Origin: an uncultured Planctomycetota bacterium | GTDB lineage: Bacteria > Planctomycetota > Planctomycetia > Isosphaerales > Isosphaeraceae | Assembly: GCA_963823665.1 (NCBI GenBank) | Contig: CAWGMQ010000010.1 | Coordinates: forward strand, 2,592,001-2,656,000 | Reading direction: 5' to 3' | Length of the DNA stretch: 64,000 nucleotides | Shown: positions 18,312 through 39,726 of the stretch, in pieces | Position numbering within the stretch: the stretch's first letter is position 1 | How the letters are laid out: every line of letters begins with the position of its first letter | Position numbers and translations under genes: made by a program | The notes under the pieces: generated by a model | Databases searched by the model: none | What the model saw: only the letters and a program-made list of their open reading frames with translations | Told to the model about the DNA's origin: nothing

Positions 18312-20257
18312 TTGGAAACCCGCACGACGAAGTGCCCGGACGTGCAGCCAACGACGCGGCCGCACCGGCTCCGCCGGCTGATTCCCATGCGCGCCGCGTC
18401 CGCCCCCGCGACGCCCGCGACCGGATTCCGCCGTTTCAAGGCGCGGGCGATCCTGGGCGTCATCGTGCTGGGATGTGTGGTCGCCGGCGTCGTGTGGAAG
18501 ATCCGTCAAGCAGCGGCGGCGCCCAGGCGCGAGCCCGGTCAGGTCGTCGCCGAATTCGCAATCCGGGACGTGCGCACCGGCCAGATCCATCGCCTGTCGG
18601 ATCATAGCGGCCGCATCCTGGTGGTCGTCTTCACCGGCACCCTCTGCCCCATCGGCGAGCTTTACCTCCCGCGCTTGAACGCCCTGGCCAGGAAATACGA
18701 AAGCCGCGGCGTCGATGTGCTGGCGATCAACTCCAACGCAAGCGAGCCCGCCGAGGACGTCGCGGAGCATGCGAGGCGCTCGGCAATCTGGTTTCCCGTG
18801 CTCAAGGATCCCCAGAATCGCGTTGCCGACCAATTAGTTGCCGAGCGCACCTGCGAAGCACTCGTGATCGACGGAAGCGGCGCCTTCGATATCGCGGCGC
18901 AATCGACGACCAGTACGCCCTGGGCTCGCGCCGGGATGCCCCGGCCCAGGAATTCCTCGCGCGAGCCATCGACGCAGTGATCGCGGGCAAGCCGGTGAGC
19001 CCGGAGATGACCCAGGTCTTCGGCTGCCCGATCGAGTGCACCCGGCCTCCGAGAAAGTCCCGCGCGACTCTCGCTGCTGCGACGTCCGCTCCGGAAGGTG
19101 CAAAGGCCGGTGACGCTGCGCAGGCAACTGCATCGACCGGACCCGCGGTGACTTATTCGGCCAACGTTGCGGCCATCCTGCACAGCCGTTGTGCAATCTG
19201 CCACCGGCCGGGCCAGGTTGCCCCGTTTTCTCTGCTCACCTACGACCACGCGCGCCGCTGGTCGACATCGATCGCCGAGGTCCTCGGCGATGGGCGTATG
19301 CCGCCCTGGCATGCCGATCCGCGCTACGGCCACTTTTCCAACGACCGCCGCCTCTCGGACCAGGAACGCTCCCGGCTCCTCGCCTGGGTGGAACAAGGCT
19401 CACCCCCCGGAGACCTCTCTCGGGCACCCGTGCCGCCCAAATTCCCCCAGGGCTGGTCGATCGGTACTCCGGATCTGGTGTTCGAGGCGCCCGAGGTCTT
19501 CAAGGTTCCCGCGGAAGGCACCCTGCCTCTCATGAAATTCCAGATCGCCGCCAACGTGAAGCAGGATCTCTGGATCCAGGCGATCGAGGCGCAGCCGAGC
19601 GATCGAGCGGTTGTCCACCATATCATTGTATTTAGTCGCGTACATGATAAATCGAATCCGAAGCAGCACAAGAAGATCTTTCTGGCGGCTTACCTGCCTG
19701 GCGATGTGCCCCAGGTTTATCCGCCCGGAGTGGCCAAGAGAATACCGGCCGGCTCAAACCTGGAGTTCGAGCTGCACTACACTCCGATCGGCAGAGTGCG
19801 ATTCGACCGGCCGTCGGTCGGTGTGATCCTCTCCAAAGAGCCACCTCGCCATGTGGCCGTGACGCGCGGCATCGCCCAGCACAACCTGCGGATTCCCCCG
19901 GGAGCTACCGATCACGTGGAACGCGCTGACTGGACGCTCAAGCACGATAGCCATCTCCTCTCCTTCTCGCCGCACATGCACCTTCGCGGTAAGAGCTTCC
20001 GCTACGAGGCCCATTACCCTGACGGACGAGTCGAGGTCCTCTTGTCCGTACCCAGCTACGACTTCAACTGGCAGAGCGTCTACAGGCTCGTCGAGCCGAA
20101 GGCACTACCCAAGGGGACCAGAATCCACTGCGAGGCGCATTACGATAATTCCTCGGCGAATCTCGCCAACCCGGATCCAACTCGTGAGGTGCTTTGGGGC
20201 GAACAAAGCTGGGACGAAATGCTGATGGGATACCTGGACTACTACGAAGACGCCTGA
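18312..20257 (+). CDS. Redoxin + cytochrome c (CxxCH) + copper type II monooxygenase-like fusion (frameshift near 18885)
   Basis: VVVFTGTLCP redoxin domain; CAICH heme motif; VVHHII, PHMHLRGK and DEM copper-ligand motifs. Confidence 0.85.
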
Positions 20258-20349
20258 GCACCAATTGTTGAATAATCCTCCAACTCAGGCTAAGCTACCA
20301 TTGCGTGATTGGATCAGAACGGGTCGCCTCGAGGTGGGAGGGGCGCCGG

Positions 20350-21865
20350 ATGCTGCGAGTGCTGGGCGGGCCCAAACGATTTTGCGACGGAATCACGCGC
20401 CGCGAGCTCCTTCAAGTTGGCTCACTGGCCGCCGCCGGGCTTCCTCTGCTGCCATTTGTCCCGGCAGTACAAGGCCGGACGACTGTGCCCGGGCCTTCGG
20501 CAAGCCTGCCCGGCTTCGGGCGGGCGAAGGCATGCATCCTCCTGTTCATGTACGGCTCGCCGAGTCAGCTCGAGACATTTGACCCCAAGCCCGACGCTCC
20601 GCTCGAGATCCGCGGCGAATTCGGCTGCATCCCGTCCAGCGTCGCCGGCTTGAACGTTTGTGACCGGCTGCCCAGGCTGGCCCAGGTGATGGACAAGATC
20701 AGCCTGATCCGCTCGGTCACGCATCCGTATCCGATCCATGGCGTGGCCTATGCCACCACGCGGAATCCCGCGGATCGAGATCCCGATGGAGCTCAATCCG
20801 CGCGACCCAGCCCACTGGCCGTTCATCGGGTCGGTCGTCGATCATGTCGACGGCAAGCGGCGGCCGGCTCTGGCCGAAGGGCGCCCGACCGTTCCCGGCA
20901 ACGTCGTGCTTCCCTGGGCATTCAGCAGTCGCCGGATCGGCGAGGTCGCCCGCGCCGGGCCCTACGCCGGATTTCTCGGGCAGGCATTCGACCCGGTTTG
21001 CACCGAGTTCGTGGGCAAGGGCACGAAGACGGCGAAAAAGACTCTCTTGGCCAACGTCTGGGAGGATCTGGAGCCTTATCGCGGCATCACGCCGGAAAGC
21101 CGGTTCCAGTTGAGCGCCGTAACCCAGCTCGAAGCCGACCTCACGCTCGACCGCCTCAACACGCGTGCGACCCTGCTCGAGCAGCTCGAGCAGCTTCGCC
21201 GCCAGCTCGATCAGTGTAAACGCACTCAGGTCCTTCGCCACCGCTCGATGGCTTTCGACCTGCTCCGCTCCGGTGAGCTTCGGCGTGCGTTCGACCTGGG
21301 CGAAGAATCCGACGAAACCCGCGGCCTCTACGGCATGACCCTGTTCGGTCAAGCCGCCCTCACCGCCCGCCGCCTGGTCGAGTCCGGCGGCCGGTTCGTG
21401 ACCGTGTTCTGGGACGAATACGGCCTGGCCGGAACCGGGTGGGATACGCACGTGGATCATTTCCCGCGGATGAAAGACGAGCTGCTGCCCGGCCTTGACC
21501 TGACTCTCTCCGGCCTCCTGGTCGATCTCGACCGCCGCGGCTTGCTCGACGAGACACTGGTGGTGCTGCTTTCCGAGCACGGGCGCACGCCCAAGCTTCA
21601 GTCGGTGCAGGGGGGTGGCCGCGACCACTGGTCAAGGTGCTACTCGGTCGTGATGGCCGGCGGCGGCATCGCTCGCGGCCAGGTCGTCGGCCGATCCGAC
21701 AAGATCGCCAGCGACCCGCTCGAGCGGGCGGTCTCACCCAAAGACATCCTCGCCACCATCTATCACCTTCTGGGTATCGACCCGACCGCCACCATCACCG
21801 ATGTTCAGGGAAGGCCGATGGTGATCGCACCAGACGCCGAGGTGATTCGCGAAGTGCTTGCGTGA
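20350..21865 (+). CDS. DUF1501 domain protein (frameshift near 20765)
   Basis: CDGITRRELLQVG, GSPSQLETFDPKP, ARRLVESG.RFV, WDTH, SEHGRTP, GRDHW. Confidence 0.9.
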
Positions 21866-21967
21866 AACACGGTCGCGACGGCTGAAGCGAAACTCTGGCC
21901 CCCTCGCCCGCCGGGAGAGGGCCGGGCGGGCGAAGCGCGCACCCCCCCAGTTCCATGAACCACGCCG

Positions 21968-22931
21968 GAGCTTCTCTGCCTCCAAAACCACCGATTTGCG
22001 ACACATCCTTACCACCATTGGGTTTAAGTGTGACGATGGAATAATCGGAACCCGGGGGTTTATCGTCGTAAACACCTGTTCGGCTGGCATTTAGGGCGTG
22101 ACGATGGAATATTCGGAACCATGCCGATTTTGGATGTAAAATCATATGGCGACTAAAGTTATGGCGTGACGATGGAATATTCGGAACTCTGGCTTCTCTA
22201 TATTGGCACTGAATCCGGCGCCTGGTGTGTCCATTTTTCGGGCTCCCGCCCAGAGAGGAGTTCGTTTTGTAGATTTGTCGTGCGCCCTTACGCCACAAGG
22301 ACTACGGGAACGCATTCGCTCGCTCCAGCAAACGAGTCATGGGCCGAACTCGAGGCCTGGTTCAAAGGAACCACGGGTAGGGTCATACCCGCGATGGATC
22401 GCAGCCCGTAGGGTGGGTGCAACCCACCGGCCTCTTTGGCTGTCCGACGGACCGCCTGAGGGGTCCAAAACATAGTGAACAACGCGAGAGATTCCCGGTG
22501 GCGCTTTTGTGTTACCCGCGCCACGAGGTATTCTTGATCGTCAGAAGGCATCGAGATCATATCTTATCCCCTGGCACCAATCCGACTTGTGGATCGACGT
22601 AGCCCATCGTTTATGAGCATTCACACATGGCGCATTGTGGCGCAAAGTGGCGCTTTTTGGACGGTCTCGAGCATCCGTGCACAGGTGTAAATCCTGGATT
22701 CCGAAAGCGGCCAACGGCCGCCAGCCGTCACCCGTTGAAAGCAGCTCAATGGAGTCGGAATCATGCTCAGCCCTCGAAAGTAGGTCAGGCTTTCACCCTG
22801 ACGATCAGTACATCGTTCGCCTCGCTCAGGACGACTTTGCGCGTCGATTTCCCGGTTGTTGCCGTTGATCCCCCGGTTGAGGCACCGCCCAGCCGGCGCA
22901 CGCACGCACGGCTCCTATCTAGATGATCTAC
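21968..22931. repeat. Non-coding module copy A (homologous to 36867-37593), starting with a 68-bp-period triple repeat
   Basis: Core GTGACGATGGAATA(A/T)TCGGAAC at 22030, 22098 and 22166. Further blocks shared with copy B: CCAAAACATAGTGAACAAC, GAGCATCCGT.CAC..GTGTAAA and ATCTACAA. Confidence 0.8.
22408..22428 (+). repeat. REP element (GTAG + hairpin)
   Basis: GTAG-GGTGGGT-GCA-ACCCACC, the canonical GTAG-family REP architecture. Confidence 0.7.
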
Positions 22932-23147
22932 AAAACCCCGGTTCCATTTGCCAAAAAGATGTGAAATTCGTCCATTTCGAGTGAGATTCCTCCGCCCTCC
23001 GTCCTGATTTGTGCATCGCGGCCGACGCATCATGACGATCTCGACAGTTGGCAGAGCCCTCCTGAGAATTCCCAAAGAAAATCTGCGCCGCGGTCCGGGT
23101 CGGACGCACATTGATTATAGTGCGTAGGCACGAGAGGACTCCGACAC

Positions 23148-26100
23148 ATGGCCATTGAGACACTGGGCGTGGCCCTGCGACAGCTCAGGGGCTTGTTCGC
23201 CGACGGTACGATCGCGGGGCTGTCCGACGCGCAGCTCCTGGAGCGGTTCCTCAGCCTGGGGGACGCCGGGGCCTTCGAGGCATTGGTGGGGCGGCACGGA
23301 CCGATGGTCCTGAGCGTCTGCCGTGCGTTCTTGCGCGATCCTCACGATGCCGAAGACGCCGTGCAGGCCACGTTCCTGGTCCTGGTAAAAAACGGAGGCG
23401 CAATCCAGCGGCGAGACGCCTTGGCGGGCTGGCTGCACATGGTCGCGCATCGCGTCGCGATCCAGGCCAACAAATCCCTGGCTCGCCGGCGCAGGCTCGA
23501 GAGAGAGGTGGCAGAGATGGCTGTCGCGACATCCACGAACGGCCAGGCAGCCGGGCATGATCTGCTGCCCGCGTTGCACGAGGAGATCGCCCGGCTGCCC
23601 GAGAAGTACCGGCTCGCGGTCGTCCACTGCGACCTGGAGGGCATGACCCAGGCGCAGGCCGCCGGGCAATTGCACTGGAGCAGACGGACGCTCCAGCTCC
23701 GGCTGGCCCAGGCGCGCACCCGGCTCAAGCGCCGACTGGCCCGACGCGGCCTGGCGCCGGATAGCGCGACGCTCGGTGTGATACTGCTGCGCGAGGCGCG
23801 AGCGGCTGTTCCGCAAGCCTGGTGCGAAGCGACCGTTCGTGCCGCGGTCGCCACGGTCAATCACGCAGTGACCGCTGGCGTCGTCTCGGCGGTGGCTCAG
23901 CAATGGGGTCAGGAGGTGTTCAAGGTCATGCTGCTTCGAAAGCTCACATGGGTGTCGGTCACTCTGCTGGCGACAAGCTTGATCGGCTGGGGGGCGTCGG
24001 CCGCCTTCCTCTCTCTTCGTGAGCAGGCCCCGCAGGGGGCGGGAGCCGGGGCGGCCGCGCGCGCGGCGGCGCCCTCCCGGCCCAGGGCGGAGACCATCGC
24101 TCCGCAGGTGGAACCGGGCTCCGCTCTTGCGGCCGGCACACTTCCGGCTCGCGGCCGTGTGCTCGACCCCGATGGCAGGCCCGTCGTCGGCGCCGGGGTC
24201 TACGTGCGCCATTATGTCGAAGCGCGCTGGAACCCGATCGACACGATCGCCGCGCGGCAGAAGGGCGCGTGGCCGTGACGGACGCAGACGGTCGGTTCTC
24301 TTTCGAGTTCGAGAAACGCGCGAGCGATGGCTCTTACTACAGCAGCCAGACCGGTTGGCACAACGCCCAGATCGCCGTCGCCGCGCCCGGATTCGCACCG
24401 GCCTGGGTTGAGGCCGGGGATATGGTCAAACGCGGCGAGATGCCGCTCCGGCTGGTCCGGGACGACGTACCGGTTTGGGGGCGCGTCCTGGATTCGCAAG
24501 GCCGGCCTGTCGCCGGGGTGACAGTGCGAATCCGAGCGATCTGGGAGGTCAAGGACGGCTTTGACCTCGATGCCATGCTTGACTCGGGCGCGGTTCCTGA
24601 AAATATGTGGCAGATCGCGCGAGTGTACGGCAAAGTGCTTGGCGAGGCAGCCCCGGCCTGGCAAGAGGATCCGGCGCCGCTCTGGCCGGGCGGCAAGAAC
24701 GTTTGGACCAGCGGCGCCGACGGTCGGTTCGAAGTTCAGGGGATCGGGCGCGACCGCATCGCCCGCCTGGAATTCCACGGCGGCGGAGTGGCAGACGGTA
24801 CTCTCGACGTCATGGCCCGACCTGGGAAGGGACCGCCCAAGGCCCGGCCGCTCCCCAACAAGCGCAGGGAAATGGGAATCAAGGACCGCGAAGCCGCGTT
24901 CCTTGGCATGTACCCTCAGGGTACGCAGCTCGTCGGTGCGACCTTCGACTTTATCGCGGGCCCGACCAAGCCGATCGCGGGCGTCATCCGTCTGAAGGGC
25001 TCCGGCAAGCCGGTCGAAGACGCCATTGTCAGCGGCGCCGACGTGGGAACGCATACCGCTGTCACTGCCCGGACCGATGCGTCGGGCCGCTTCCGCCTCG
25101 ATGGGGTGCCCAAGGGGGAGTACTACCAGATCCAGGTCAACCCAAGGCAAGGAATCGACCCGTTCCTCCGCCGCTGGGATATTATCGATGACACGGAGGG
25201 GCTCAAGCCGATCGAGACGGCGATCGAGGTGCCCCCGGGGGTGATCGTGACCGGACGGTTGATCGACAAGGTGACGGGCCGGGTCGTCCCGCCTGCGGAT
25301 GTGGAATACACCAAGGCGCCGGATAACCTGGCCACCGGAGACGCGTTGGCATTCTCCCGCCTCGCCGACGGGGCGTTCGGACTGACCGTCCCACCGGGAC
25401 GCGGGATGATTGCCGGGGCCGCAGCCGTCGAGGGGAAGGATGACCCGTACGTCGCCGCTCACCTGAAGGCAGCGGACCGAAGCCAGAAGGGGATCGAGGC
25501 CAGGTTATATCCACACAAGCTCGTCGGTCATCACACCTATCGATTCATCGACGTCCCAGCCCGCTTGGGACCCCTGGCTGTGGACCTCGAGCTGACCCGC
25601 GGCGCGAGCCGCGCGGTCCGACTCACCGGCCCGGACGGGCTGCCCGTCGTCGGCGCCCTGGCTTACGGCGCGAGTGCCCGCGACTGGTCAGGGACCGAGC
25701 GCTCAAGGGCGCTCGACACCGATACCTTCGAGGTCGGGGGTCTGGAGCCGGGCCACCCTCGGCTGTTGGTGTTCACGCACAAAGCCCGCAAGCTCGTCGG
25801 AGCGGCCGTGCTCAAAGACGAAGACCTGAAATCCACCGAACCGCTGGAGATCAAGCTCTTCCCGGCGGGCGCGATCACAGGACGGCTCCTCGACCAGGAT
25901 GGCCTGCCGTGGGCGGGGGCCACGCTTCATGTCTGGATGACCGACCCGGACCGGCCCCCAAGCTTGGGCTTCGGATGTGCCTTCGGCGAGGCGGTCACCG
26001 CCGACGCGCAGGGTCGCTTCCGGCTCGAGGCGTTCGTGCCGGGCGTTGAGACTGAGATTATCATCTCAGTCCCGAATCGCATCGGCGTCCAGCTCGACGG

Positions 26101-26188
26101 CGGCAATGCCCTCCGGAAGCCCGCCCTGAAACCGGGTGAGCTCCGTGACCTGGGCGACGTGAAGGCCAAGGAAATGCATCAACAATGA
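23148..26188 (+). CDS. ECF sigma-70 factor with long TM-linked C-terminal extension of carboxypeptidase-regulatory-like repeats (frameshift near 24270)
   Basis: DAQLLERF..GD..AFEALVGRHGPMVLSVCR, DAEDAVQATFLVL, region 4 LPEKYR; then a TM helix and GRVLDPDGRPV.GA / TDADGRF repeats. Confidence 0.88.
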
Positions 26189-26225
26189 CCGCTTGGAGGG
26201 GAGGGGGCCGGTGCGAGCGCACGCC

Positions 26226-27558
26226 ATGCGACGGATTTCGGGCGATTACTGGGCGCCCTATGTCCCCGACGAAACCCTGCCTTGGGACCTGCGACGGGTG
26301 GTCCACCTGCACCGCCGGGCCGGCTTCGCCGCCACCTGGGACGAGCTGCGGCGCGATCTGAACGACGGCCCCGAAGTCTCGATCAACCGGCTCCTGGAAG
26401 GGAAGTCCCGATCCTGCGGCATCCCTGCGGAGTTCACCGAGTTCGCCGATCGCCTGGCGGACCGGGCGGTGGCCGCTCCCGCGTCCAATCGCCTCAAGGG
26501 TTGGTGGGTCTACCGCATGCTCTTCGGTCCGGACCCGCTGACCGAACGCCTGACGCTCTTGTGGCACGGACACTTCGCCACCGGCAACCTCAAGGTCAAT
26601 GACCTGGGCTTGATGCGCCGGCAGAATGAGAACCCTGCGCTCGCTCGGCCGCGCCCCGTTCGGAACGCTCCTGCGTGCGATGCTCCGCGAGCCGGCCTTG
26701 CTCATCTGGTTGGACGCGCCCGATAACACCAGGGACCACCCCAATGAGAACCTGGCCCGCGAGCTGATGGAGCTCTTCACGCTCGGTGTCGGTGCCTTTT
26801 CCGAGGACGATGTCAAGCAGGCGGCCCGCGCCCTGACCGGCTGGCGGCTCGCGGGCGATCAGGTCCGGCTTATTCCCTCGCGGCACGACCCGGGCACCAA
26901 GACCATCCTCGGCCGCACCGCCGCCTTCGATACCGACGGCCTGACGGAGTTGCTCCTCGACCATCCAGCCACGTCCCGCCGCGTGGCCTGGCGGCTGTGC
27001 CATGAGTGTTTCGGCGAAGAGGCGGTTGACGATCGGGCAATCGACGCCCTCGCCGAGGGGCTGCGAGCCCACCACCTTGACATCGGCTGGGGCATCGCGA
27101 CGGTGCTCCGATCGCGCCTCTTCTTTGACATCGCCAACCTGGGCCGGCGCATCGCCAGCCCGATCGATTATGTCGTGGGCACGGTGCGGGCACTCGAGAT
27201 GTTCGACCCATCACCGAGCACGCCGGTGCTGGCCGACTGGTGCGGCCGGCTGGGCCAGGACCTGTTCGATCCGCCCAATGTCGGCGGCTGGAGCGGCGGG
27301 CGAAGCTGGATCACGACCCGCTCGGCCATCGGGCGGGCCAATTTCGCCGCGGCCCTGGTCGACGGCGCGGAGGTCGGGCTCGGCAAGTCGTTCGACCCGA
27401 TCGCGCTGGCCGACCGCCATGGCCAACGTCGCAACCCGTCGTTCTACGCAAACTTGCTGCTCGGTGCCGTTGGCCCCAAGGTCCCGCTCGATGCGCCGGG
27501 ACCGGCCCGGCAGGCCCTCATCCGACTGTTGGCATCGTCCGAAGCGCAGCGGATTTGA
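26226..27558 (+). CDS. DUF1800 domain protein (frameshift near 26635)
   Basis: HLHRRAGFAA, PLTERLTLLWHGHFAT, PNENLARELMELFTLG, PPNVGGW. Confidence 0.9.
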
Positions 27559-27580
27559 CCATTTCTCAGGAGGTGAGATC

Positions 27581-28787
27581 GTGATCACACGCCGAGGCTT
27601 CTTCGCCCGCAGCCTGCGGGATTCGTCGCTGATCGCGCTGGCGCCGGCGCTGCCCGGATTCCTGCGCGCACGGCGCGCGCCGCCGGCCCGGCGAAAGACG
27701 GCCGCATCCTGGTGGTCGTCCAGCTCAACGGCGGCAACGATGGCATCAATACGGTCGTCCCGTTCAAGGACGAGGGGTACGCCAGGCATCGCAAGGCCAT
27801 CCGACTGCCCGAGGGGCGGCTGATCAAGGTCAACGGCGAGGTTGGTCTGCACCCGGCGATGCGCGATGCGGGGAAGCTGCTGGAATCGGGCCGGCTGGCG
27901 ATCGTTCCGGGCGTCGCCTATCCGAACCCGAGCCGTTCGCACTTCCGCAGCATGGCGATCTGGCAATCGGCCCGGCTCGACGCCCGCGACCACACCGGGC
28001 TGGGCTGGGTCGGCCGCGGCCTCGACGAGGGTCCTGCGACTCACGACGGCGCGCCGGCGGCCATGCTGATCGGACCCAACGACCTGCCGCCGGCCATTCG
28101 AGGCCAGCGCTCGATCGAGCGCCGCGCTCGACCGGCTCGACGACTATGCCTTGAGCGACAAGGAGGCCGCGGCCAAGCCGACCGGCTCCTCCACAGCCGG
28201 GGACGACCTGGGGCTGTTCCTGCACCGCAGCCTGCTGGACGCCTACACGACCGCGGACCGTCTCGAGGCCGTCAGCGAAGCCCGCGGCGATGCGGCTTAT
28301 CCCGAGTCGGGAGCTCGCCCGTCGGCTGAAGCTGACGGCGCGGCTGATCAAGGCCGGGCTGGGCACGCGCGTCTATTATCTCGAACAGGGCGGATACGAC
28401 ACCCACAGCTACCAGGTCCCGCCCCACGCCGCGCTGCTGGAGGAGCTCTCGGCCTCGCTCCGGGCGTTCCTCGACGATCTGGCCGCGGCGCGGCTGGCCG
28501 ACAGGGTCCTGGTGCTGGTCTTCAGCGAGTTCGGCCGCCGCGTCGCCGAAAACGGCTCGAAAGGAACTGACCACGGCACTTCCGGGCCGGTGCTCCTGGC
28601 GGGGCCGTCGGTCCGGCCGGGCCTGCACGGGGCCTACCCGAGCCTCACCGATCTGGTCGACGGCGACCTGAAGATCGCGGTGGACTTCCGCCGCGTCTAT
28701 GCCACCGTCCTCGAGGATTGGCTCGGCCTGCGATCGAAGCAATCCCTGGGCGGCGCCTTCGAGTCGCTGCCGCTTTTTGACTCGTGA
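27581..28787 (+). CDS. DUF1501 domain protein (DUF1800 partner type; several frameshifts)
   Basis: GTG after AGGAGG; twin-Arg-like TRRGF; LVVVQLNGGNDGINTVVP, PSRSHFRSM.IW, GGYDTH, FSEFGRRV.ENGS.GTDHG. Confidence 0.9.
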
Positions 28788-28920
28788 GCTCGCCTATACG
28801 ACAGTATCAACCACGCCCGATCATGGCCTTGATCGCACCCGATCGTGCCGTTGCTCCGATTCGGAATACACGGCCGCCCGAATCGGCGAGAATCGTCGGC
28901 GAGCCCGGCCAGAATCCCTG

Positions 28921-28987
28921 CTTGCCGTGTACACGCTCGATCGCGACGTAAGCGGCGGAGCCCTTCACATCGGTCATACCTGTTAAC
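28921..28987 (-). pseudogene. Internal fragment of a DUF3224 gene (copy of 35408-35474)
   Basis: 62/67 nt identical; identical peptide LTGMTDVKGSAAYVAIERVHGK. Confidence 0.85.
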
Positions 28988-29410
28988 CCGAACTTACCGA
29001 TCAATTGCATTGTAATGTGAAGTGAAAGCATTACTTACGCGCGCGCTGCGCGCGCATTTCTGGCTACAGGGTAACGCTGAGCAGGTCTAAGGCTCGCTGC
29101 TGCTGCAGCGATGGCTGGGTTAACTCGTAGAATTCCGAGCCGGTTTCCCCTTCTAGCCGCACTTTGTTCTTGGCCAGCGTCCCCAGATCGACCAGCAGGG
29201 CGCGGAAGCTGTGAACGGGCAAGCTGTCTGCTTGGTCTTATCTTTGGCTCGGGCGGCGTCGGAACGTGGAGCCGGCTCTACAATCGAGGTACGCGCCGCC
29301 TCCGCCGCCTCCCGATCATGATCTTCGAATAAGAGCGGAGCAAGTTTCTCACGCATGTGCCACTCGACATACTAGGCCAACATAAAAAGAAATACATGTG
29401 CTCGGGTTCG
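28984..29410 (-). mobile_element. IS1634-like transposase 3' remnant with IS right end
   Basis: HVFLFMLA..., MREKLAPLLFEDHD, PVHSFRALLVDLGTLAKN and QQRALDLL, typical of the IS1634 C-terminus. Ends ...AAGTTCGGGTTAA at the junction with the DUF3224 fragment. Confidence 0.75.
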
Positions 29411-29461
29411 GTCATCTAAGGCCCGTGAGTAGCAACGGAACAGAACACTGGAATATGGCTT

Positions 29462-32441
29462 CTACTCCGGCGGTTTCTCGGCCCCCTTGCCTGCCACCAG
29501 TTCCTTGTGCCACTTCGCGGCTTCGTCGGGCTTGTCCATCGCCTCGTAAAGTTGGACGAGACGCTCCAGGGCTTCCATCAATCGATTCCTGGCCTCTGGC
29601 GGGATCGTTGCCTCCTGCTGGTTCATCCCCTCATAGCCGGCCAGCAGCAGCGGCTCGGCGGCCACATACTTCTTCTGGCCCAGCAGCGCCCCACCGAGCG
29701 CCGATTTGGTGTTGGACGTTGACCAGGCGTCAGGCTGCGTCTTCTCACGGATGGCCAGGCACTCGAAGAGCAGATGTTCGGCGTCCGTCCATTTCTTTTG
29801 GTTCAGCAGAATCCGACCGAGTAGTGCCAACTCGTCGGCATAGGCCGGTGTGTCTCCACCCCATTTCTGTTTCTCCAAGGGTAGTAGCTCCCGCTGAAGA
29901 AACTCGGCTTTGTCGAACTGCTTGACCTGATTGTAGGCAGCGACGATGAGTTTCATGCTTTGGAGTGTGTGGGGATGTTCGGGGCCGAGCTTGGCTTTCC
30001 GGAGCTTCAGCGTCTCCTCGAAGAGCGGCAGGGCCAGGTCCCGCTTCCCGGCAGCCTGATACGCCCCGGCGAGGTTGTTCATGCTTTGGAGTGAGTCGGG
30101 ATGTTCGGGACCAAGCTTGGCTTTCCGGAGCTTCAGCGTCTCCTCGAAGAGCGGCAGGGCCAGGTCCCGCTTCCCGGCAGCCTGATACGCCCCGGCGAGG
30201 TTGTTCATGCTTTGGAGTGAGTCGGGATGTTCGGGACCAAGCTTGGCTTTCCCGAGCTTCAGCGTCTCCTCGAAGAGCGGCAGGGCGAGGTCCCGCTTCC
30301 CGGCATCCTGATACGCCCCGGCGAGGTTGTTCATGCTTTGGAGTGTGTCGGGATGTTCGGGACCAAGCTTGGCTTTTCGGAGCTTCAGCGTCTCCTCGAA
30401 GAGCGGCAGGGCCAGGTCCCGCTTCCCGGCAGCATGATACGCCATACCGAGGTTGTTCATGCTCATGAGCGTGTGGGGATGTTCGGGGCCGAGCGTGGCT
30501 TTCCGGAGCTTCAGCAATTCCTCAAGGAGCGGCAGGGCCAGGTCCGGCTTCCCGGCATCGTCATACGCCAGGGCGAGGTTGTTCATGCTAATCAGCGTCA
30601 ACGGATGTTTGGAGCCCAAGGTGCGTTGCAGTCCCTTGGCGGCCGTTTCCGCCATCGTCAGGACCTCGGCGTCTTGTCGACCACGGTGGCGAAAAATGTG
30701 CGCGAGTTCGCCTTGAGACCACAAGGCGGCGGCCGACTGCGGGTCGCGTTTCCGCGCCGCATCCACCATGGCCCGCCACTGCTTTTCGGCCTTAGCCCAT
30801 GACGCCAGGCCGTGATACGTGTCCGCGATCGTCTGGCGGAGGGCGAGTTCGAGTTCCGGCTGGCCCACGAACCTCGTTCCCACCTTCTCTGCCGCGCGGT
30901 CGAGCACTTCCAGCATCGTAACATGATCCTCGATTGCGTTGTTTGCCGGCTCAGCCTGGGTCAGCAGATCCTGCGTCAAGAACTCATTGATTGTCTTGGT
31001 CTTCGCCTCGGCTGCGATCGCTTTGTCGCGCTCCACGACTGCCATGGCGCAGTTGCTCGGCTTCCGCTTTCTGCGATGCCAGCGCTTGCAGCTTGGCCTG
31101 CCTTTCACCTTCCGCTCGCGCGGATTCGGCCTGTTGCGCTTGCAATGCGGCTCTCTCCGCCCGCGTCGCCCGCACCGCTTGCCAGGTGCTGACGGCCACA
31201 CCCGCCACGAGGAGCAGCGCGATCGCCGCCGCTGTCGTCAAGGCCGCCCGATGCTTGCGCACGAACTTCCACAGCCGGTAGCGAGCGCTGGGCGGCGCCG
31301 CCAGCACGGGCTCGGAGGCCAGGTAGCGCTGAATGTCCATCGCGAGGCCGTTGGCGGTTTCGTACCGGCGGGTGCGGTCCTTTTCCAGGGATTTCATCAC
31401 GATCCAGTCCAGCTCGCCGCGCACCAGCTTCGCCAACCTCGCCGGCTCCGTATGCCGGCCAGCGGCCAGCGACGGCAACGCCTGGCTGGAACTCAGCCGC
31501 GCGCTCGGCCGGGGCGGCTCTTCCTCCCGAATGATCCGGCGGACCTCGTCCCAGGCCGCCTGCTTGAACCGCTGCTTCTCCAGCGGCGTCGTCCCGGTCA
31601 GCAGCTCGTAGAGCAGGACGCCCAGGGAGTAAATGTCCGAGCGCGTGTCCACGTCGAGGTTGTTGAACTGCGACTGCTCGGGGGACATGTACTGCGGCGT
31701 GCCCAGCACCGTCTCGTGGGCCGTGTGCAGCGTCCGCTCGGTCAGCGATTGGTGCATCGCCTTGGCCAGACCGAAGTCGATCACCTTGGGCACCGGCGTG
31801 TCGTCGTAGGGAGCAACGAGAATGTTGGAGGGTTTCAGGTCGCGGTGAATGATTCCCTTCTGGTGCGCGTGCTGGACGGCCCGGCACACCTGTACGAACA
31901 AGGTGAGCCGTAGAGGCACGCTCAGCCGGATGGCGTCGCAATACTCGGTGATCGGTACGCCCTTGACGTATTCCATGACGAAGAAAGGCCGGCTGGTTTC
32001 GGTCAACCCACCGTCGAGCACCTTGGCGATGTTGGGATGGTCCATGACCGCCAGGGCCTGCCGCTCGGCCTCGAAGCGGGCCAGGACGGACTTCGAGTCC
32101 ATGCCGGCCTTGATGAGCTTCAGCGCCACTTTGCGACGAACCGGTTGCGTTTGCTCGGCGACCCAAACCGTGCCCATGCCGCCTTCGCCGATCGCTTCGA
32201 GCAGCTTGTAGCGGCCGGCGATGACCGTGCCGGGTATTTCCATAAAGGGCGGATCATCCACCGTGGCCGTTGTTCGGGCGATATGACTCTGAAGAAAAGG
32301 GCCGGGCTGGTCGTGCGCCTTCAACAGCGACTCGACCTCCCGGCGCAGCTCGTGGTTCGTCCCACAGGCCCCGTCGAGATACGCCGTGCGATGCTCCGGA
32401 GACAATTTAACGGCGGCCTTGAAAATTCCAGATTCGGTCAT
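29462..32441 (-). CDS. Hanks-type Ser/Thr protein kinase with TM helix and 42-aa TPR repeats (frameshift near 31050)
   Basis: IGEGGMGTV, VALKLIK, HRDLKPSN, DFGLAK, GTPQYMSPEQ; then HPxxLxSMNNLAxAY TPR units. Confidence 0.93.
29955..30607 (-). repeat. 126-bp tandem repeat (about 5.2 units) encoding TPR units
   Basis: For example ACGCCCCGGCGAGGTTGTTCATGCTTTGGAG recurs at 30061, 30187 and 30313. Confidence 0.95.
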
Positions 32442-32489
32442 GGCGTTCTCCCTCGATCGGATGGCCTCTCATCATCTCACAGCTCCCTC

Positions 32490-34088
32490 TCAAAAGATTT
32501 CGTGTCCCCTTTTTCCGGGAGGAGGCAGCGGAGTCTTTTTGACAGGTGGGGTTGGTGGGGATTTCTTGGAAGTCGAATGGAAAGTGAATGAGAATTCCGG
32601 CGCGGCTGTGTTGCCATTGCCATCCTGGTCGCGTACGGTTTTCTCCGGAATGTCGACCGTCGTCGGAGAGCCGTCTGTTGGCCCAATCAGGGTGAAAGAA
32701 GACGTCAACGCCGCGGTACTGTCGGGACTGGCGCTCGGGTCGGGAGGCGAGAAATTGCTGATGACGCCGCCTTTGCTGACGATGAGGTCGCCCGCCGTGA
32801 AATCGGTCACGGGCTCGCTGAAGGCCACGTTTACCGTGATGGCCCCCGCAGGTTCAGACGGCTTCACAGGACCCCCCACCTGGAGTTCTCGTTGCCGTGT
32901 CATGAACACGTTCAGCGCCGATTCTTTGTGAAAGAGGGAGGCCGCCCATTTGAGAGCGGGCTGCAAGTCCGCAGCCTCCACATCGGCCGCATGGACCTCG
33001 ATATAATCGACGTGCTGGTTGTCCGCGTTCAGCACCATGCCGTTGTCGATGGATCGCACCAAGGCCAGGGGCGGATCTCCGTCGGCGCCCATTTTGTCGG
33101 ATGCCGTTTCGCATGAAGACCCCAGTTGATACCCGGTGGTATCCGTATCCGTTTGCGTGATCACCGAAGAAATGGCCTCCGCGTGATACGACAAGTCTCC
33201 GGTAAGAGCGCTGCTCTGATAGGAAAACCGGGCTCCCAGTGTCGTCGATGCCTCCGTGAGCAAGTCTTGCCTCGTCTGGTCTGGGTCCGAGATGCCGTTC
33301 CCGTGTGAAAGAGAAACATACTGCTTCGGGAAGTCCGTGGCGTAGTCGCTAAAGATGGTTTGCCAAGCATTCTCGTAGATTTGCAGTGAATAACCGTAGT
33401 CGCTCCAGGTAACATTTTTTGGCGGGTCCGGCTCAGTGAATTCATCGGATACCGATGTCGGCCCGGCTGCGGCGATCATTCTAAATTGAGAGTCGCCCCC
33501 GTACTTTTTCTCAACGAGTTGCAAGAAGTCGTTCCAGTCCGTGAGGTACGTCGTATCCCAGGGCATAGGCAGCGGCAATTTTCCACTCCCCTTGCTTCCA
33601 CGCCCGTATTGGGGATGGAACGGGTGATATACGACGCCGCTGCTCTTGGCAAAGATCCATTTGGGAGACCAGAACCCGGGCATGATGAGCAACTGCACCC
33701 ACTTTCCTGCTGCATCGGCAGCCTGAAACACCTGATCAAGCCGGCTCCATTTCGGTTTGAATGAAGGAGCCGGCCCATCCGGCTCGATGTCCCTCCAGTT
33801 GATTTGGAAGGCGACACCGCTGATGTACGGAGCGGAGATGGTCGCGAGATCCTTCTTGAAGTCCTTTTCTGACACCGGCTCGGCATCGGAACCGTCGTAC
33901 GGTATGACAGTTGCCAGACCCGTTGGTGGCGAGGGAAGCAGAGGAATACTGATCACACCTGTGAGTAGGGTTCGTGCCTCCAACACCTCCGGGAACAGGC
34001 GCGGCCGGCGGCGGGCACGGACAGTCTGGCTGGTGCCATCTTGTTGAAAACTGTGACGCACGTTGTCGACCAGGTTGCGGATGCCCAT
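32490..34088 (-). CDS. Exported GH-A clan (GH42/beta-galactosidase-like) TIM-barrel protein with C-terminal Ig-like domain
   Basis: RRRPRLFPEVLEARTLLT planctomycete motif; QINWRDIEP, WSRLDQVF..A...GK.VQL, PMPWD; C-terminal FSEPVTDFTAGDL..DQDGNGN Ig-like domain. Confidence 0.7.
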   Translation of the reverse strand: MGIRNLVDNVRHSFQQDGTSQTVRARRRPRLFPEVLEARTLLTGVISIPLLPSPPTGLATVIPYDGSDAEPVSEKDFKKDLATISAPYISGVAFQINWRDIEPDGPAPSFKPKWSRLDQVFQAADAAGKWVQLLIMPGFWSPKWIFAKSSGVVYHPFHPQYGRGSKGSGKLPLPMPWDTTYLTDWNDFLQLVEKKYGGDSQFRMIAAAGPTSVSDEFTEPDPPKNVTWSDYGYSLQIYENAWQTIFSDYATDFPKQYVSLSHGNGISDPDQTRQDLLTEASTTLGARFSYQSSALTGDLSYHAEAISSVITQTDTDTTGYQLGSSCETASDKMGADGDPPLALVRSIDNGMVLNADNQHVDYIEVHAADVEAADLQPALKWAASLFHKESALNVFMTRQRELQVGGPVKPSEPAGAITVNVAFSEPVTDFTAGDLIVSKGGVISNFSPPDPSASPDSTAALTSSFTLIGPTDGSPTTVDIPEKTVRDQDGNGNTAAPEFSFTFHSTSKKSPPTPPVKKTPLPPPGKRGHEIF

Positions 34089-34163
34089 GGCGTTCTCCCT
34101 TGCGTTGGATGGTCTCTCAACATCCAGTGCGAGAACGGAGAACAAACCCCCGGTGACTTTTTT

Positions 34164-34748
34164 TTAGCCGGGCGGATTTCTTTCCTCATCCCGGAGCCAC
34201 CGCCTGCGCAGCCAGGCTTTGGCGTAGGTCCAATCCTCTTCCGCCGTCGCCGGCGCGACACCCAGAATTTGGGCCGCTTCGTCGATCGTGCAACCGAGAA
34301 AGTAGCGAAGTTTGACCAGCTCCGCCTTGCGAGGCGACTTCTCCGCCAGACGATCCAGGGCCTCATGAACGGCCATGACTTCGAGCGGGTCGCGAGGGTT
34401 TGCCATGGGGAAGTCATCCGGGTCCGCATCTCGGTGGACCAGGCCGCCGCCGTGTTTGTCACTCAGTTTGCGGCGCGCGTTGTCGATGAGGATGCGGCGC
34501 ATGGCCTCGGCGGCAGCGGCGAAGAAGTGGCCTCGGCTGTCCCAGTGCCGCTGCTCCCCTTGGCCGACCAGGCGGAGGTAGGCCTCGTGGACCAGGGCGG
34601 TGGCCTGGAGGGTCTGGCCCGGCTTCTCGCGTGCCATCCTCTCGGCCGCGAGCCGCCGCAACTCGTCGTAAACCAGCGGCAAAAGCCGCGACCCGGCGCA
34701 GGCGTCGCCTTGCTCGATGGCCTCCAGGATGCGTGTCACCTCATTCAT
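34164..34748 (-). CDS. ECF sigma factor, TIGR02999 (kinase-associated) type
   Basis: MNEVTRILEAIEQGD...LLPLVYDELRRLAA...QTLQATALVHEAYLRL..HFFAAAAEAMRRILIDNAR..WTYAKAWL. Confidence 0.93.
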   Translation of the reverse strand: MNEVTRILEAIEQGDACAGSRLLPLVYDELRRLAAERMAREKPGQTLQATALVHEAYLRLVGQGEQRHWDSRGHFFAAAAEAMRRILIDNARRKLSDKHGGGLVHRDADPDDFPMANPRDPLEVMAVHEALDRLAEKSPRKAELVKLRYFLGCTIDEAAQILGVAPATAEEDWTYAKAWLRRRWLRDEERNPPG

Positions 34749-34889
34749 CGACCGTTCCGTTCGACAGGCGAATCCCGGCGGGAAAGACACGCCGAGATCA
34801 TTCAGACAACTACGGAATCTTTCGTCTCCGTTCACGTCTCACTTGTGAAAGCCCATGGGTATAGTGACTGCCTGGCCCTGATGCCGCGA

Positions 34890-34991
34890 CTACTTCCGTA
34901 CATCGTCACGAACAATGGCCTGCCGCCCGTTGCCGCGAGCCGTGACATGGTAAATCGCACCGGGATATTGGACACGCACGCTTCTTGCCAT
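34890..34991 (-). mobile_element. REP-associated tyrosine transposase (RAYT, Y1 HuH) N-terminal remnant
   Basis: Manual translation MARSVRVQYPGAIYHVTARGNGRQAIVRDDVRK*, the canonical RAYT N-terminus (YHVTxRGN). Confidence 0.8.
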
Positions 34992-35066
34992 GTCCCCTAT
35001 TGCAATCATCTCTCAGGCGAAACGCAAGCAATGGGACGCGCACTGGGATCATTTCCCCGCATGAGG

Positions 35067-35156
35067 ATTGACCCGGCTTCCACCATTGCCGATTTTCAAG
35101 GAAGGCCCATGGCGATCGTGCCCCACGCCGAAGTGATTCGCGAAGTGCTCGCGTAA
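35067..35156 (+). pseudogene. Orphan 3' end of a DUF1501 gene (paralogous to 21776-21865)
   Basis: IDPASTIADFQGRPMAIVPHAEVIREVLA* versus IDPTATITDVQGRPMVIAPDAEVIREVLA* (22/29 aa identical). Confidence 0.85.
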
Positions 35157-35212
35157 CCAGCTTTGTCGAGATTTCGGCCCGCGAGACGCGGCTCGAACAG
35201 CCCGCATTCCGG

Positions 35213-35692
35213 CTACTTCTCACCGGCAAGCGTGTACTCCAATCGATAGGAGTGCTTGCCGCCAGCGACCTTGATGTGCATCTCTCCCTCGATCCCGGCG
35301 AGGTCACCGGTCCCTGAGTCGGGCACGATTCGAATGACCAGCGATTGCACTCCTTTGCTCATGACTCCCGTGTGGTGCACGAGAAACGTTCCCTCGCGAT
35401 CCTTCAACTTGCCGTGTACGCGCTCAATCGCGACGTACGCGGCGGAGCCCTTCACATCGGTCATGCCCGTTAACATGCGGCCCTGGCCGGTGGCATTCAG
35501 GTCGCCGTGATAGTGCTTCTCGACGGTCATCATTCCCATCTTGTCATCGCCCGTGTCGTGGGGAACAATTTTGACGTCAAACTCGCCGGTGACTTCGTTC
35601 ATGAATTTCTTCTCCTGGGGGTGATTCTTGAGTGGCGGATCGGCACGAACGACATTAGCGGCGAACAACGCAACCAGGAATGCCGTCGTCAT
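35213..35692 (-). CDS. DUF3224 family protein
   Basis: GEFDVK...EKHYHGDL..SAAYVAIERVHGKL.DREGTF...IVPDSGTGDLAGIEG. Confidence 0.88.
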   Translation of the reverse strand: MTTAFLVALFAANVVRADPPLKNHPQEKKFMNEVTGEFDVKIVPHDTGDDKMGMMTVEKHYHGDLNATGQGRMLTGMTDVKGSAAYVAIERVHGKLKDREGTFLVHHTGVMSKGVQSLVIRIVPDSGTGDLAGIEGEMHIKVAGGKHSYRLEYTLAGEK

Positions 35693-35836
35693 CAAGTTTG
35701 CACCGGGCATGCCGGCGCGAGGTGGACATATCGGCGATGTGATGTGTCGCATACGATGTTTCCTGTGAGACGCGATGAGTTGATCGACAAGCAAAGTCTA
35801 TCGCGGGCCCAGACTCGTTGATTGAAGAAACGCGAC

Positions 35837-36634
35837 ATGCTGAAACGAAAGTCCGAGCCACGACACGGAGTCCTGCATCTCGCCGAGGCTGAATTCGATC
35901 TGCGGTTGGAGCGATTTGAACCGGGCGAGACACTTCGACCGTTCGTCGAACATTACTGGGCGGTTACGTGGGAAGCCCAGCCGCGCGTGACGCGCGAAAC
36001 GGTGCCTCACCCCTCCGTGCACTTGGTTCTGGAGCCGGGCTGCTCCAAGCTGCACGGTATCTATCCGCGGCGATTTTCTCGAATCATCGAAGGTTCGGGA
36101 CGCGTGCTGGGAACCAAGTTTCGGCCCGGTGGATTTCGCGCGTTCGCAAGCGAGAGCGTCGCGCGATTCACCGGCAAAATCGTTGCCCCGTCGGCGATCT
36201 TCGGGGCATCGATCGACAAGCTCGAAGCCGAGGCCACCAGGTGTGCGCAGGCGGGTGAGGCGTTCGAGCTCGTGGACGCGTTTCTGACTCGATTGAACCC
36301 GACCACGACGCCCGAATTAGCCAGGATTTCCGAGATCGTCGAGGCGATCGCCGGCGACCACTCCATCACGCGCGTCGATATGCTCACCCAGCGGTTCGAC
36401 ATCGGGCTAAGACAGCTCCAGCGGATTTTTCGAGACTACGTCGGCGTAAGCCCGAAGTGGGTCATCCAGAGACACCGTCTGATCGAGGCCGCCCAGCGCC
36501 TTGGTCGTCGCGACCACTCCATCGACTTTGCCGCGCTGGCGCTCGAGCTCGGCTATTCCGATCAGCCGCACTTCATCCGCGAATTCAAGCAGATGGTCGG
36601 CATGTCGCCGGCCGACTATCAGAAGTCGCTTTGA
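35837..36634 (+). CDS. AraC family transcriptional regulator, divergent from DUF3224
   Basis: LRPFVEHYW..GTKFRPGG; C-terminal RQLQRIFRDYVGVSPK..LALELGYSDQPHFIREFK. Confidence 0.92.
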   Translation: MLKRKSEPRHGVLHLAEAEFDLRLERFEPGETLRPFVEHYWAVTWEAQPRVTRETVPHPSVHLVLEPGCSKLHGIYPRRFSRIIEGSGRVLGTKFRPGGFRAFASESVARFTGKIVAPSAIFGASIDKLEAEATRCAQAGEAFELVDAFLTRLNPTTTPELARISEIVEAIAGDHSITRVDMLTQRFDIGLRQLQRIFRDYVGVSPKWVIQRHRLIEAAQRLGRRDHSIDFAALALELGYSDQPHFIREFKQMVGMSPADYQKSL

Positions 36635-36639
36635 GCCGC

Positions 36640-36840
36640 GAGACTGAAGTAGCCAAGCGGGCTCGAATCCTACTGCTCGCCGACGATGGACACCCGCACG
36701 GGCGTCGACCGGATCACGTGATCGCCGGGACTGTCGGCCTATCCGAACGGCAGATCGTCCGGATCCGCGAGCGGTTCACAGACGTCACGGAGCCACTGCC
36801 GATGCGGTCTGGCACGCTCAAGCGGGTCGACGACAAGATC
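36640..36840 (+). mobile_element. Internally deleted IS630-like transposase remnant
   Basis: KRARILLLAD.GHP.GRRPD..IA..VG.SERQIVRIRERF (HTH) is joined directly to EPLPMRSG..KRVDD, a pre-DDE segment. Confidence 0.7.
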
Positions 36841-36866
36841 ACGCAACCCCACCGAGAGTGGAACCA

Positions 36867-37593
36867 GGACTTCTCCGCCCGCAGAACCACCGATTTGCGT
36901 CACGTCCTTACCACCATTGGGTTTAAGTGTGACGATGGAATAATCGGAACTCGGGGGTTTATCGTCGTAAACACCTGTTCGGCTGGTATTTATGGCGTGA
37001 CGATCGAATATTCGGAACGCTGGCGATTTCGGATGTAAATTCCCAGGGTGACTAAGGTTATGGCGTGACGATCGAATATTCGGCACATTGGCTTCTTCAC
37101 GGGCACTGAATCCGCATCATCGTCATTTTCATGGCCGCTCCGATAAACCCAGAAACTGCTCGGTCGCACCATGGAAAGGCTCCCTTCCAATGCCCTGAAA
37201 TTCGGCCCAAAACATAGTGAACAACACCCGGAAAAAAAAATGGCAATCTTGCGTGACCATTGCCAAACGGTTTTGCCATCGCCGAAGCACGCTTGCCTCT
37301 ATTCTCATTTCGTTATGTTCATTGCACTTACAGAGTAGCCACTCGACCAGAAGCCATGTCCACGCTCATCGCGAAAATGGCAATAAGTGGCAATCCTACG
37401 GGCCCCTTAGAGCATCCGTACACGAGTGTAAACCGGCCACTTCTTGGTCCCGACTTTTGATTTCATATCTAGCTCGGACTCCGAGAACCCAACGGCCGTC
37501 ATCATCCGTCGCACTCCTCCCATAAACGCCCGGCACGAACTAGCTCCCGCCGGCTGCAAAACCCCGAACGTGCAGCGCACTACCTCATCTACA
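36867..37593. repeat. Non-coding module copy B with a 68-bp-period triple repeat
   Basis: Cores at 36929, 36997 and 37065 (GTGACGAT(G/C)GAATA(A/T)TCGG(A/C)AC). The first ~130 nt are nearly identical to copy A. Confidence 0.8.
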
Positions 37594-37970
37594 ATATGCG
37601 CGGACTTTACGATCTGAGGGCGCCGGCGTCGGGGACGTTTTCAGAAAGTTTCCGGGTTCGAGCGATCAGACCGATTAGCGCACAGAATTCATCCTGTATG
37701 CGCACGGTCGCAGGCGAAACGCCGGCCGCCACAGCCATGTCGCCCAACCCGCGGCTACCGTCCTGCCCTTTGTTGACTTGGTTAGCTTCTGTTGAAGACC
37801 CCTCAGGGAAAGCCAGACACCCGAAAGCCAGACACCCAGCGATCGACGGACTGCTACCTTCGTGGAATCTCGGACGCCCACCTTCCCGAGGGCCTCGCCG
37901 ACAGCAGCGGTTGACCTTATCCTGGGATTGAAGAGAAGAAGAAATTGCCGGAGCCCGTGGGAACGGTGCC

Positions 37971-39721: not shown

Positions 39722-39726
39722 TCAGC

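Follow-up and report, generated by a model that had tools for sequence, protein, structure and literature searches.

A dispersed, gene-less repeat array of Isosphaeraceae that is linked to a stand-alone predicted helicase and likely represents an origin-like element

In this study, we describe a short repeat array that lies between two ordinary genes in a window of 64,000 nucleotides (the whole stretch of DNA analysed) from an uncultured Planctomycetota bacterium of the family Isosphaeraceae, whose genome comprises 16.5 Mb in 12 contigs. The left neighbour is a gene of the DUF1501 family (20738-21865, plus strand) and the right neighbour encodes an ECF sigma factor (23148-24278, plus strand); both are syntenic in a congener. 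Comparison with this congener places between them an insert of about 1.2 kb (insert A, 21866-23056; right edge at 23056-23062) that is missing in relatives. The congener (G001) has 27 bp between the stop codon at 21865 and position 23063, and a contig from an independent sequencing run (X7), which is short and has a depth of 2.6 and a short side of 26, joins 21865 to 23057 by 22 other letters and represents the empty allele. The filled allele has lost 22-27 bp of the empty one, and no target duplication was seen. Since the flanking genes are ordinary and syntenic, the array belongs to a small insert and does not mark the border of an island, the role given to it in the first-pass annotation. 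Elsewhere in the window, the 3′ end of the DUF1501 gene (21771-21863) is duplicated 13 kb away at 35062-35154 with 81% identity, and this duplicate lies at the edge of a 6.4-kb block (28806-35206; kinase, TPR and Ig-like genes) that is missing from the congener and has a 67-bp direct repeat as its boundary. In the regions 23148-26188, 26626-27823 and 29462-32441, several genes (a sigma factor fusion, DUF1800 and kinase-TPR) are divided between two frames, which probably reflects sequencing frameshifts in the assembly.

The array reads on the minus strand. Its three 22-bp cores (22030-22051, 22098-22119 and 22166-22187) are spaced exactly 68 bp apart, as had been reported, and no chance match to the core was obtained in 100 shuffles. 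Core 1 is composed of the hexamer GTGACG, a predicted iteron, and a GAATAATCGG box. The segments between the cores (spacer 1, 22052-22097; spacer 2, 22120-22165) do measure 46 bp, but there are two of them and not three; the presumed third lies before core 1 and contains an inverted hexamer at 21999-22004 that had been overlooked. With its 25-bp spacer, which includes TTA at 22024-22026, this hexamer makes up the inverted-iteron pair that closes the array (21999-22029, minus strand); it reads CGTCAC in most copies, and the CGACAC of copy A has a mismatch. Both GTAA-N19-TTA segments noted earlier are present, with TAA at 22069-22071 and TTA at 22091-22093 in spacer 1, where the TAA-N19-TTA stretch is conserved among copies, and with TAA at 22137-22139 and TTA at 22159-22161 in spacer 2. 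The AT content of the array is 52-54% versus a background of about 37%. A second copy on the minus strand (copy B, 36898-37086; inverted CGTCAC at 36898, cores at 36929, 36997 and 37065) lies within insert B (36637-37944), at which place the congener has 1.14 kb of unrelated DNA. Copies A and B are 89% identical over 227 bp, "spacers" included, and neither has a helicase gene.

The spacers had been described as variable, which the other copies of the subfamily contradict: 13 of 14 of them match the window copy at 70-93% identity in spacer 1 and at 72-85% in spacer 2, the spacers of the one divergent copy being 41-46% identical. This bears on the proposal that the array is a Cas-less CRISPR-like or processed small-RNA array. 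A repeat plus spacer of 22 + 46 is within the CRISPR length range, and Cas1 is encoded elsewhere in the genome. However, cas1 is found only far from arrays (contig C8 at 1.24 Mb and contig C10 at 0.18 Mb), the hexamers co-vary with their inverted partner, and the spacers are position-specific, carry fixed motifs and are common to loci and species, which excludes a CRISPR-like array. Folding of both strands was no better than that of shuffles (z 0.48 and 0.18), and an Rfam search of 20000-40000 returned one sub-threshold match, outside the array, and no known CRISPR repeat family, so that we find this whole line of explanation barely credible. The "double IHF" sites fared no better: with the IHF consensus WATCARN4TTR, 4 matches at ≥7/9 were counted versus a shuffle mean of 4.2, a comparison to be read with the reservation that the planctomycete IHF/HU consensus could differ.

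The remainder of insert A contains other repeated modules in the orientation of the array. The "cleaner 11-7-11 palindrome" previously assigned to 22279-22307 pairs at 6 of 11 positions only, and its sequence is part of a different and commoner module with more than 30 separate BLAST matches. This leader module (22229-22357, minus strand; TTCGTTTTGTA at 22261) matches loci L254, L258 and L262 at 78-93% identity, and three stand-alone helicase genes of this genome have it 150-340 bp upstream. A second co-oriented module (22470-22682, minus strand) consists of ACATAGTGAACAA followed about 200 bp on by AGCATCCGT, and recurs upstream of two helicase genes (L256 and L262). It has two copies in the window (22470-22682 and 37212-37423), the distance between its two motifs is always about 200 bp, and it carries 10-bp-period repeats of both orientations (TGGCAAT or GTGGCGC). 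The TAGTGAACA repeats also occur in a tRNA-linked island (L297), where they separate the integrase from the last gene. This second module may be the origin of another element. Insert A further holds a GTAG-type REP-like hairpin (22408-22428, plus strand; the label follows PMC3733652), a second REP-like hairpin at 22780-22803 and another hairpin at 21899-21921.

Far from being limited to two loci, the core is dispersed genome-wide, with 42 matches at ≤3 mismatches and, for a degenerate (relaxed) pattern, 70 matches at ≤1 mismatch (controls 0 and 0). The exact relaxed pattern is present in 9 of 121 Isosphaeraceae genomes: five genomes, which measure 10.8-16.5 Mb, have 44, 26, 37, 30 and 5 occurrences, and the remaining four have a single one, in two cases apparently by chance (the single matches in G067 and G131 were set aside as unrelated or chance). 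A two-unit pattern identified 56 loci in a species-representative collection, all in four uncultured Planctomycetota/Isosphaeraceae records, and 11 loci in metagenomes, from which two matches (L195 and L196) that look unrelated or due to chance were left out; viral contigs scanned with two patterns gave 0 matches. The expected 68-bp period holds as a fixed spacing inside subfamilies but differs among them, being 63-66 bp in two-unit arrays, 67-68 bp in three-unit arrays of the window type, and 65, 78, 77 and 64 bp in a five-unit subfamily. Similarity between copies falls off gradually at both ends of the array, so the ends are ragged. At one locus (L060, G000:C6:822200-822520) a five-unit array has arisen via tandem duplication of the second unit, and at another (L069, G000:C4:1836000-1838100) six repeats of the leader module, with a period of about 285 bp, adjoin an array.

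The array is also a site of insertion. At five loci, distributed over three genomes (L111:8015-9880 (G049); L122, L125, L091 (G012); L174), the GAATAATCGG box of the core is interrupted by an IS with terminal repeats AGGGATCGTCCCAAA that measures about 1.77 kb, or by its 180-bp miniature, and about 6 bp are duplicated on insertion. The transposase of this IS has no Pfam or NCBIfam match, and the IS may target origin-like arrays. As for candidate partners of the array that were discarded, an IS beside the core in G049 was rejected as the source of a transposase for the array, since it generates duplications of AATCGG when it inserts and this query did not detect it in the present genome (G000), and the STGP protein family was represented by one broken fragment only.

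The partner gene of the array is a stand-alone predicted helicase. At a metagenome locus (L190), an ORF on the opposite strand terminates inside the second core, and at two loci of genome G068 the helicase gene likewise terminates inside the core. Homologues of the L190 protein occur in 28 of 121 Isosphaeraceae genomes, with 10-11 matches in the genome studied here, where an intact 564-aa gene on contig C5 (L052:6182-7876) is followed within about 5 bp of its stop codon by an array of three units with 86% identity to each of the window copies. In this gene-bearing copy, the stop codon lies a few bases past the equivalent of core 3. The array lies directly downstream of the gene at L052/L254, L255, L190, L272 and L273, and the gene of the window copy has been deleted. 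Several stand-alone genes (e.g., L257 and L261) show no array. The companion modules share the orientation of the array in 30/30, 15/15 and 5/5 cases and recur upstream of helicase genes, and the complete unit thus appears to comprise leader modules, helicase gene and array.

The helicase family has at least 3178 members among 7997 candidates scored, and in a sample of the phylum it was found in 16 of 300 other genomes, mostly as a single long gene. Profile and sequence searches gave no significant Pfam, NCBIfam, PHROG or PDB sequence match. A structure model of a homologue that is 87% identical (P0001; pLDDT 83, pTM 0.78) matched hexameric replicative helicases in Foldseek, namely AsfvPrimPol, SCCmec Cch, poxvirus D5/E5, NrS-1 and the SaPI5 primase-helicase, at E 4e-8 to 1e-5 and with modest TM-scores (0.35-0.51), and it aligned with the helicase of phage Zeta1847 at a TM of 0.79. 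Its C-terminus has a strand-helix-strand pattern, a predicted winged-helix topology. The family protein is therefore predicted from the model to belong to the SF3/SF6 AAA+ helicases and to carry a winged helix at its C-terminus. Most stand-alone genes have Walker A/B, motif C and arginine-finger motifs as in the island homologues; a subgroup (L285, L287 and L289) and some others did not match all of these patterns. Some possess an N-terminal Cys/His cluster, which we take to resemble a primase zinc finger. With dN/dS of 0.15-0.34 in 6 of 6 pairs, the stand-alone helicases evolve under purifying selection. In a quick, midpoint-rooted tree of 35 proteins, in which the other tips are island and plasmid homologues, all 24 stand-alone helicases, from eight genomes, form one clade (SH-aLRT 100).

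When seven island proteins were searched for, none of 30 stand-alone helicase loci was matched, as against 7 of 9 island-type or other loci, and no integrase, excisionase-type HTH or primase homologue lies beside the 30 stand-alone genes tested, which sets them apart from PICI/P4-like elements. Several stand-alone helicases occupy syntenic sites in both congeners, which indicates that the gene-bearing form moves rarely. At one orthologous site (L052 versus L269/L318), the N-terminal three quarters of the protein are 77% identical and the C-termini and repeat types differ, suggesting that winged helix and origin were exchanged as one block. A 2-kb element (L052:9247-11295) occurs in at least seven other places of this genome with 93-97% identity and identical flanks; it sits in a non-coding module of roughly 800 bp that precedes the helicase gene, an apparent targeting of that module, and its transposase is IS110-like by eye.

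Most arrays have no such gene. Among 34 array loci examined in this genome, which include a few weak single-core matches, 31 are without a helicase, and helicase homology within 5-6 kb was found at three (one intact, one frameshifted and one C-terminal remnant). Insert A maps to the gene-bearing locus in two pieces: 21971-22173 corresponds to the sequence immediately after the gene and 22229-22357 to the sequence immediately before it, and about 1.85 kb between them, including the helicase gene, is missing at a deletion joint (22188-22228, minus strand). This joint is common to six copies, four in this genome and two in the congener, at 77-88% identity. One joint in six copies of two species means that the gene-less form has itself been copied. 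In these six copies, variation is seen in 11 of 69 motif columns versus 56 of 120 other columns (Fisher p 2e-5), and in 3 of 21 when the motif columns are limited to those not covered by the search pattern (p 0.007). Moreover, in 13 orphans (15 aligned copies minus the gene-bearing one and one divergent one), the 21 motif columns outside the search pattern are 98.5% conserved versus 85.6% (permutation p 5e-5); these p-values overstate independence because the copies are related. The orphan arrays also differ in presence between species. Of eight loci compared, five were orphan loci with both flanks aligned, and the array is absent from the orthologous site at all five; two more (L054 and L055) are syntenic on one flank only and were kept outside the empty-site count, and where this genome has the gene-bearing copy, the congener encodes a helicase of 77% identity with repeats of another type behind it. 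Inspection by eye of three empty sites revealed no target duplication, and 22-67 bp of the empty allele are missing from its filled counterpart. A second inverted end of the array was not found. A DDE transposon end or MITE was discarded as an identity for the array, as the ends are ragged and no target duplication was seen.

The way in which the arrays have been multiplied can be viewed differently. Arrays could be inert remnants of helicase origins, copied with their flanks by Y1/REP/TIR-type transposases and with no involvement of the helicase. The REP-like hairpins inside insert A, the ragged ends, the empty sites without duplication and the cargo ORF carried by one insert (L057) would suit this, as would a candidate Y1-transposase-linked 8-mer downstream of arrays, found in the same orientation in 8 cases versus 1 in the opposite. 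However, insert A itself does not have this 8-mer, which is nearby in only a minority of the 34 loci, and inert passengers would not preserve motifs over spacers once the gene was lost. We therefore consider passive copying unlikely, although it has more in its favour than the other alternatives.

A further possibility is that the array is a recombination or transposon-end site, with arm-type or transposase-binding repeats, for another recombinase, since fixed spacing, inverted hexamers and strict co-orientation with modules (30/30 and 15/15) also suit recombination complexes. The surroundings of the arrays speak against it. No conserved recombinase gene was found near 32 loci, the helicase being the sole conserved neighbour, and a screen of the proteins encoded up to 6 kb away from the first 32 loci yielded no conserved one tied to the array; this screen missed the single gene-bearing locus because clustering required two loci. 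The seven island proteins matched 1 of 34 array loci, and this match belongs to an island that a tRNA-like gene separates from the array. Tyrosine integrases have 20 matches in the genome, the nearest to copy A about 56 kb off; one lies 0.8 kb from an array, within the island beyond the tRNA-like gene, and two lie 8-11 kb from a helicase gene. A recombination site is accordingly very improbable in our judgement.

The arrays could also be of service to the host. Helicases and arrays might have been domesticated as auxiliary origins or restart sites for a chromosome of 10-16 Mb, or as decoys against incoming islands. In agreement with this, many-copy arrays were seen only in genomes of 10.8-16.5 Mb, and the helicases retain their Walker A/B, motif C and arginine-finger motifs under the purifying selection described above. 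However, other 12-16 Mb genomes of the family gave no match, array positions differ between congeners, and dnaA and dnaB are present in the genome. A switch of GC skew was absent as well, with the expected direction at 19/33, 24/41 and 6/13 loci (all p >0.3); this is a weak test with 3-4 kb flanks, and it cannot show young or occasional origins because these would leave no switch. A host function of this kind thus seems rather improbable to us.

The explanation that we prefer, and regard as probable, is that the array is a gene-less helicase-linked repeat, likely a loading and melting site (origin) by analogy with known initiators, which likely spreads non-autonomously via a helicase encoded elsewhere. 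The geometry of the repeats is consistent with this. The arrangement X6-N3-TAA-N19-revcomp(X6) follows 19 of 61 helicase rows, versus 1 of 61 control stretches inside genes, and its strict form is missing in the other 42. Fourteen of the 19 are perfect (one locus counted twice) and present six compensatory hexamer pairs (CGTCAC, CGCCAC, CGTCAT, CGTCAG, CGTCCC and CGCCGC, each with its complement); five carry one mismatch, and two of these five are probably chance. No winged-helix residue that tracks the hexamer variant was visible by eye. The earlier idea of a fixed core that is bound by protein within a phased nucleoprotein array stands in outline, in that spacing and motifs are conserved and vary less than the remainder, but the candidate binding protein is a predicted helicase-initiator encoded in trans and not a tyrosine recombinase.

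It is possible to sketch a mechanism on the SaPI model. The C-terminal winged helix would bind the GTGACG hexamers, the DNA would open at the inverted pair around the 25-bp spacer, and a helicase encoded elsewhere in the chromosome would act on the gene-less arrays in trans. The constraint on orphans would be most easily explained if duplication still needs recognition of the copy by the helicase, the recognised copy being duplicated, e.g., via local over-replication and then end joining. The weakest steps are that helicase loading would lead to local over-replication and that the extra DNA would be joined elsewhere by host repair or by resident single-strand transposases; Y1 transposases may do the joining. 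More tentatively, the whole system might be selfish DNA free of integrase and transposase, in which a self-loading helicase gene and its origin fire in place and re-insert, with the gene-less origins as MITE-like parasites. If so, the chromosome would contain dozens of helicase-dependent origins besides oriC.

Rep-ori modules are known from plasmids and integrase-bearing islands. What is new here is a multi-copy helicase clade, free of integrase and primase and present in about 10-25 copies per chromosome, with gene-less, probable origins that keep their motifs and change place between species; no description of such stand-alone cassettes was found in the literature searched, which left most subscription papers outside. 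If the helicase loads on the arrays, these chromosomes have dozens of potential non-DnaA origins that spread without a dedicated recombinase, and the six compensatory hexamer pairs with their cognate helicases make initiator specificity directly testable in vitro. If the arrays are mere passengers, the finding reduces to a tidy annotation of intergenic repeats.

MITEs and REPINs are non-autonomous, internally deleted, multi-copy and polymorphic and depend on a protein in trans. The gene-less arrays resemble them in being internally deleted, multi-copy and polymorphic, and would likewise be dependent in trans; in contrast, the arrays show no terminal inverted repeats or target duplication, and their parent gene encodes a predicted helicase-initiator instead of a transposase. 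CGTC-tagged REPs have an 8-9 bp stem, a 4-5 bp loop and an adjoining unpaired CGTC tag (PMC3733652); this identity was rejected for the array, in which the hexamers are 25 bp apart and CGTC belongs to the inverted pair. The Streptomyces plasmid pFP11 (NC_006911) encodes a 34%-identical homologue (WP_011265226) with short direct and inverted repeats about 550 bp downstream, which unlike the stand-alone genes is plasmid-borne and preceded by its own Prim-Pol gene. The RepA of pFP11, possibly not this homologue, is stated to bind its iterons (PMC3583192).

Other Isosphaeraceae islands carry a helicase homologue beside genes for a tyrosine integrase, an HTH_17 protein and a primase-like protein; one case shows a fusion to Prim-Pol. 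Islands L274-L281 share the helicase family with the stand-alone clade at 40-50% identity and also have short repeats in both orientations at the 3′ end of the gene, including hexamers of the GTGACG/CGTCAC type; they differ in having integrase, HTH and primase genes and mostly one copy of the helicase gene, whose C-terminal extension contains the repeats.

The closest parallel is to the Rep-ori of SaPI/PICI elements. In these elements the origin follows rep directly, and its penta- or hexanucleotide iterons, to which the C-terminal winged helix binds, have opposite orientations on either side of an AT-rich segment; the 15-17 bp between inverted iterons may melt early (PMC9371898; bioRxiv 10.64898/2026.10.17.759575). 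The SaPI/PICI-type definition has at least two iterons on each side of AT-rich DNA; around the inverted pair, the 68-bp subfamily has three hexamers on one side and one on the other, and the other subfamilies two. Unlike SaPIs, the arrays have repeats 63-78 bp apart with an extra GAATAATCGG box, in place of closely packed repeats, and, with an AT content of no more than 52-54%, they are without the long central AT tract of SaPI5 (roughly 100 bp). Unlike SaPIs and PICIs, the stand-alone genes (30 tested) have no adjacent integrase, excisionase or primase homologue, and about 10 genes and more than 30 gene-less arrays share one chromosome. Nevertheless, as with PriRep5 (PDB 7OLA), a predicted SF3/AAA+ helicase with C-terminal winged-helix topology is followed right downstream by a repeat array, in which hexameric repeats form an inverted pair around a short AT-richer spacer. 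By this analogy, the layout of the array is that of a SaPI-type origin.
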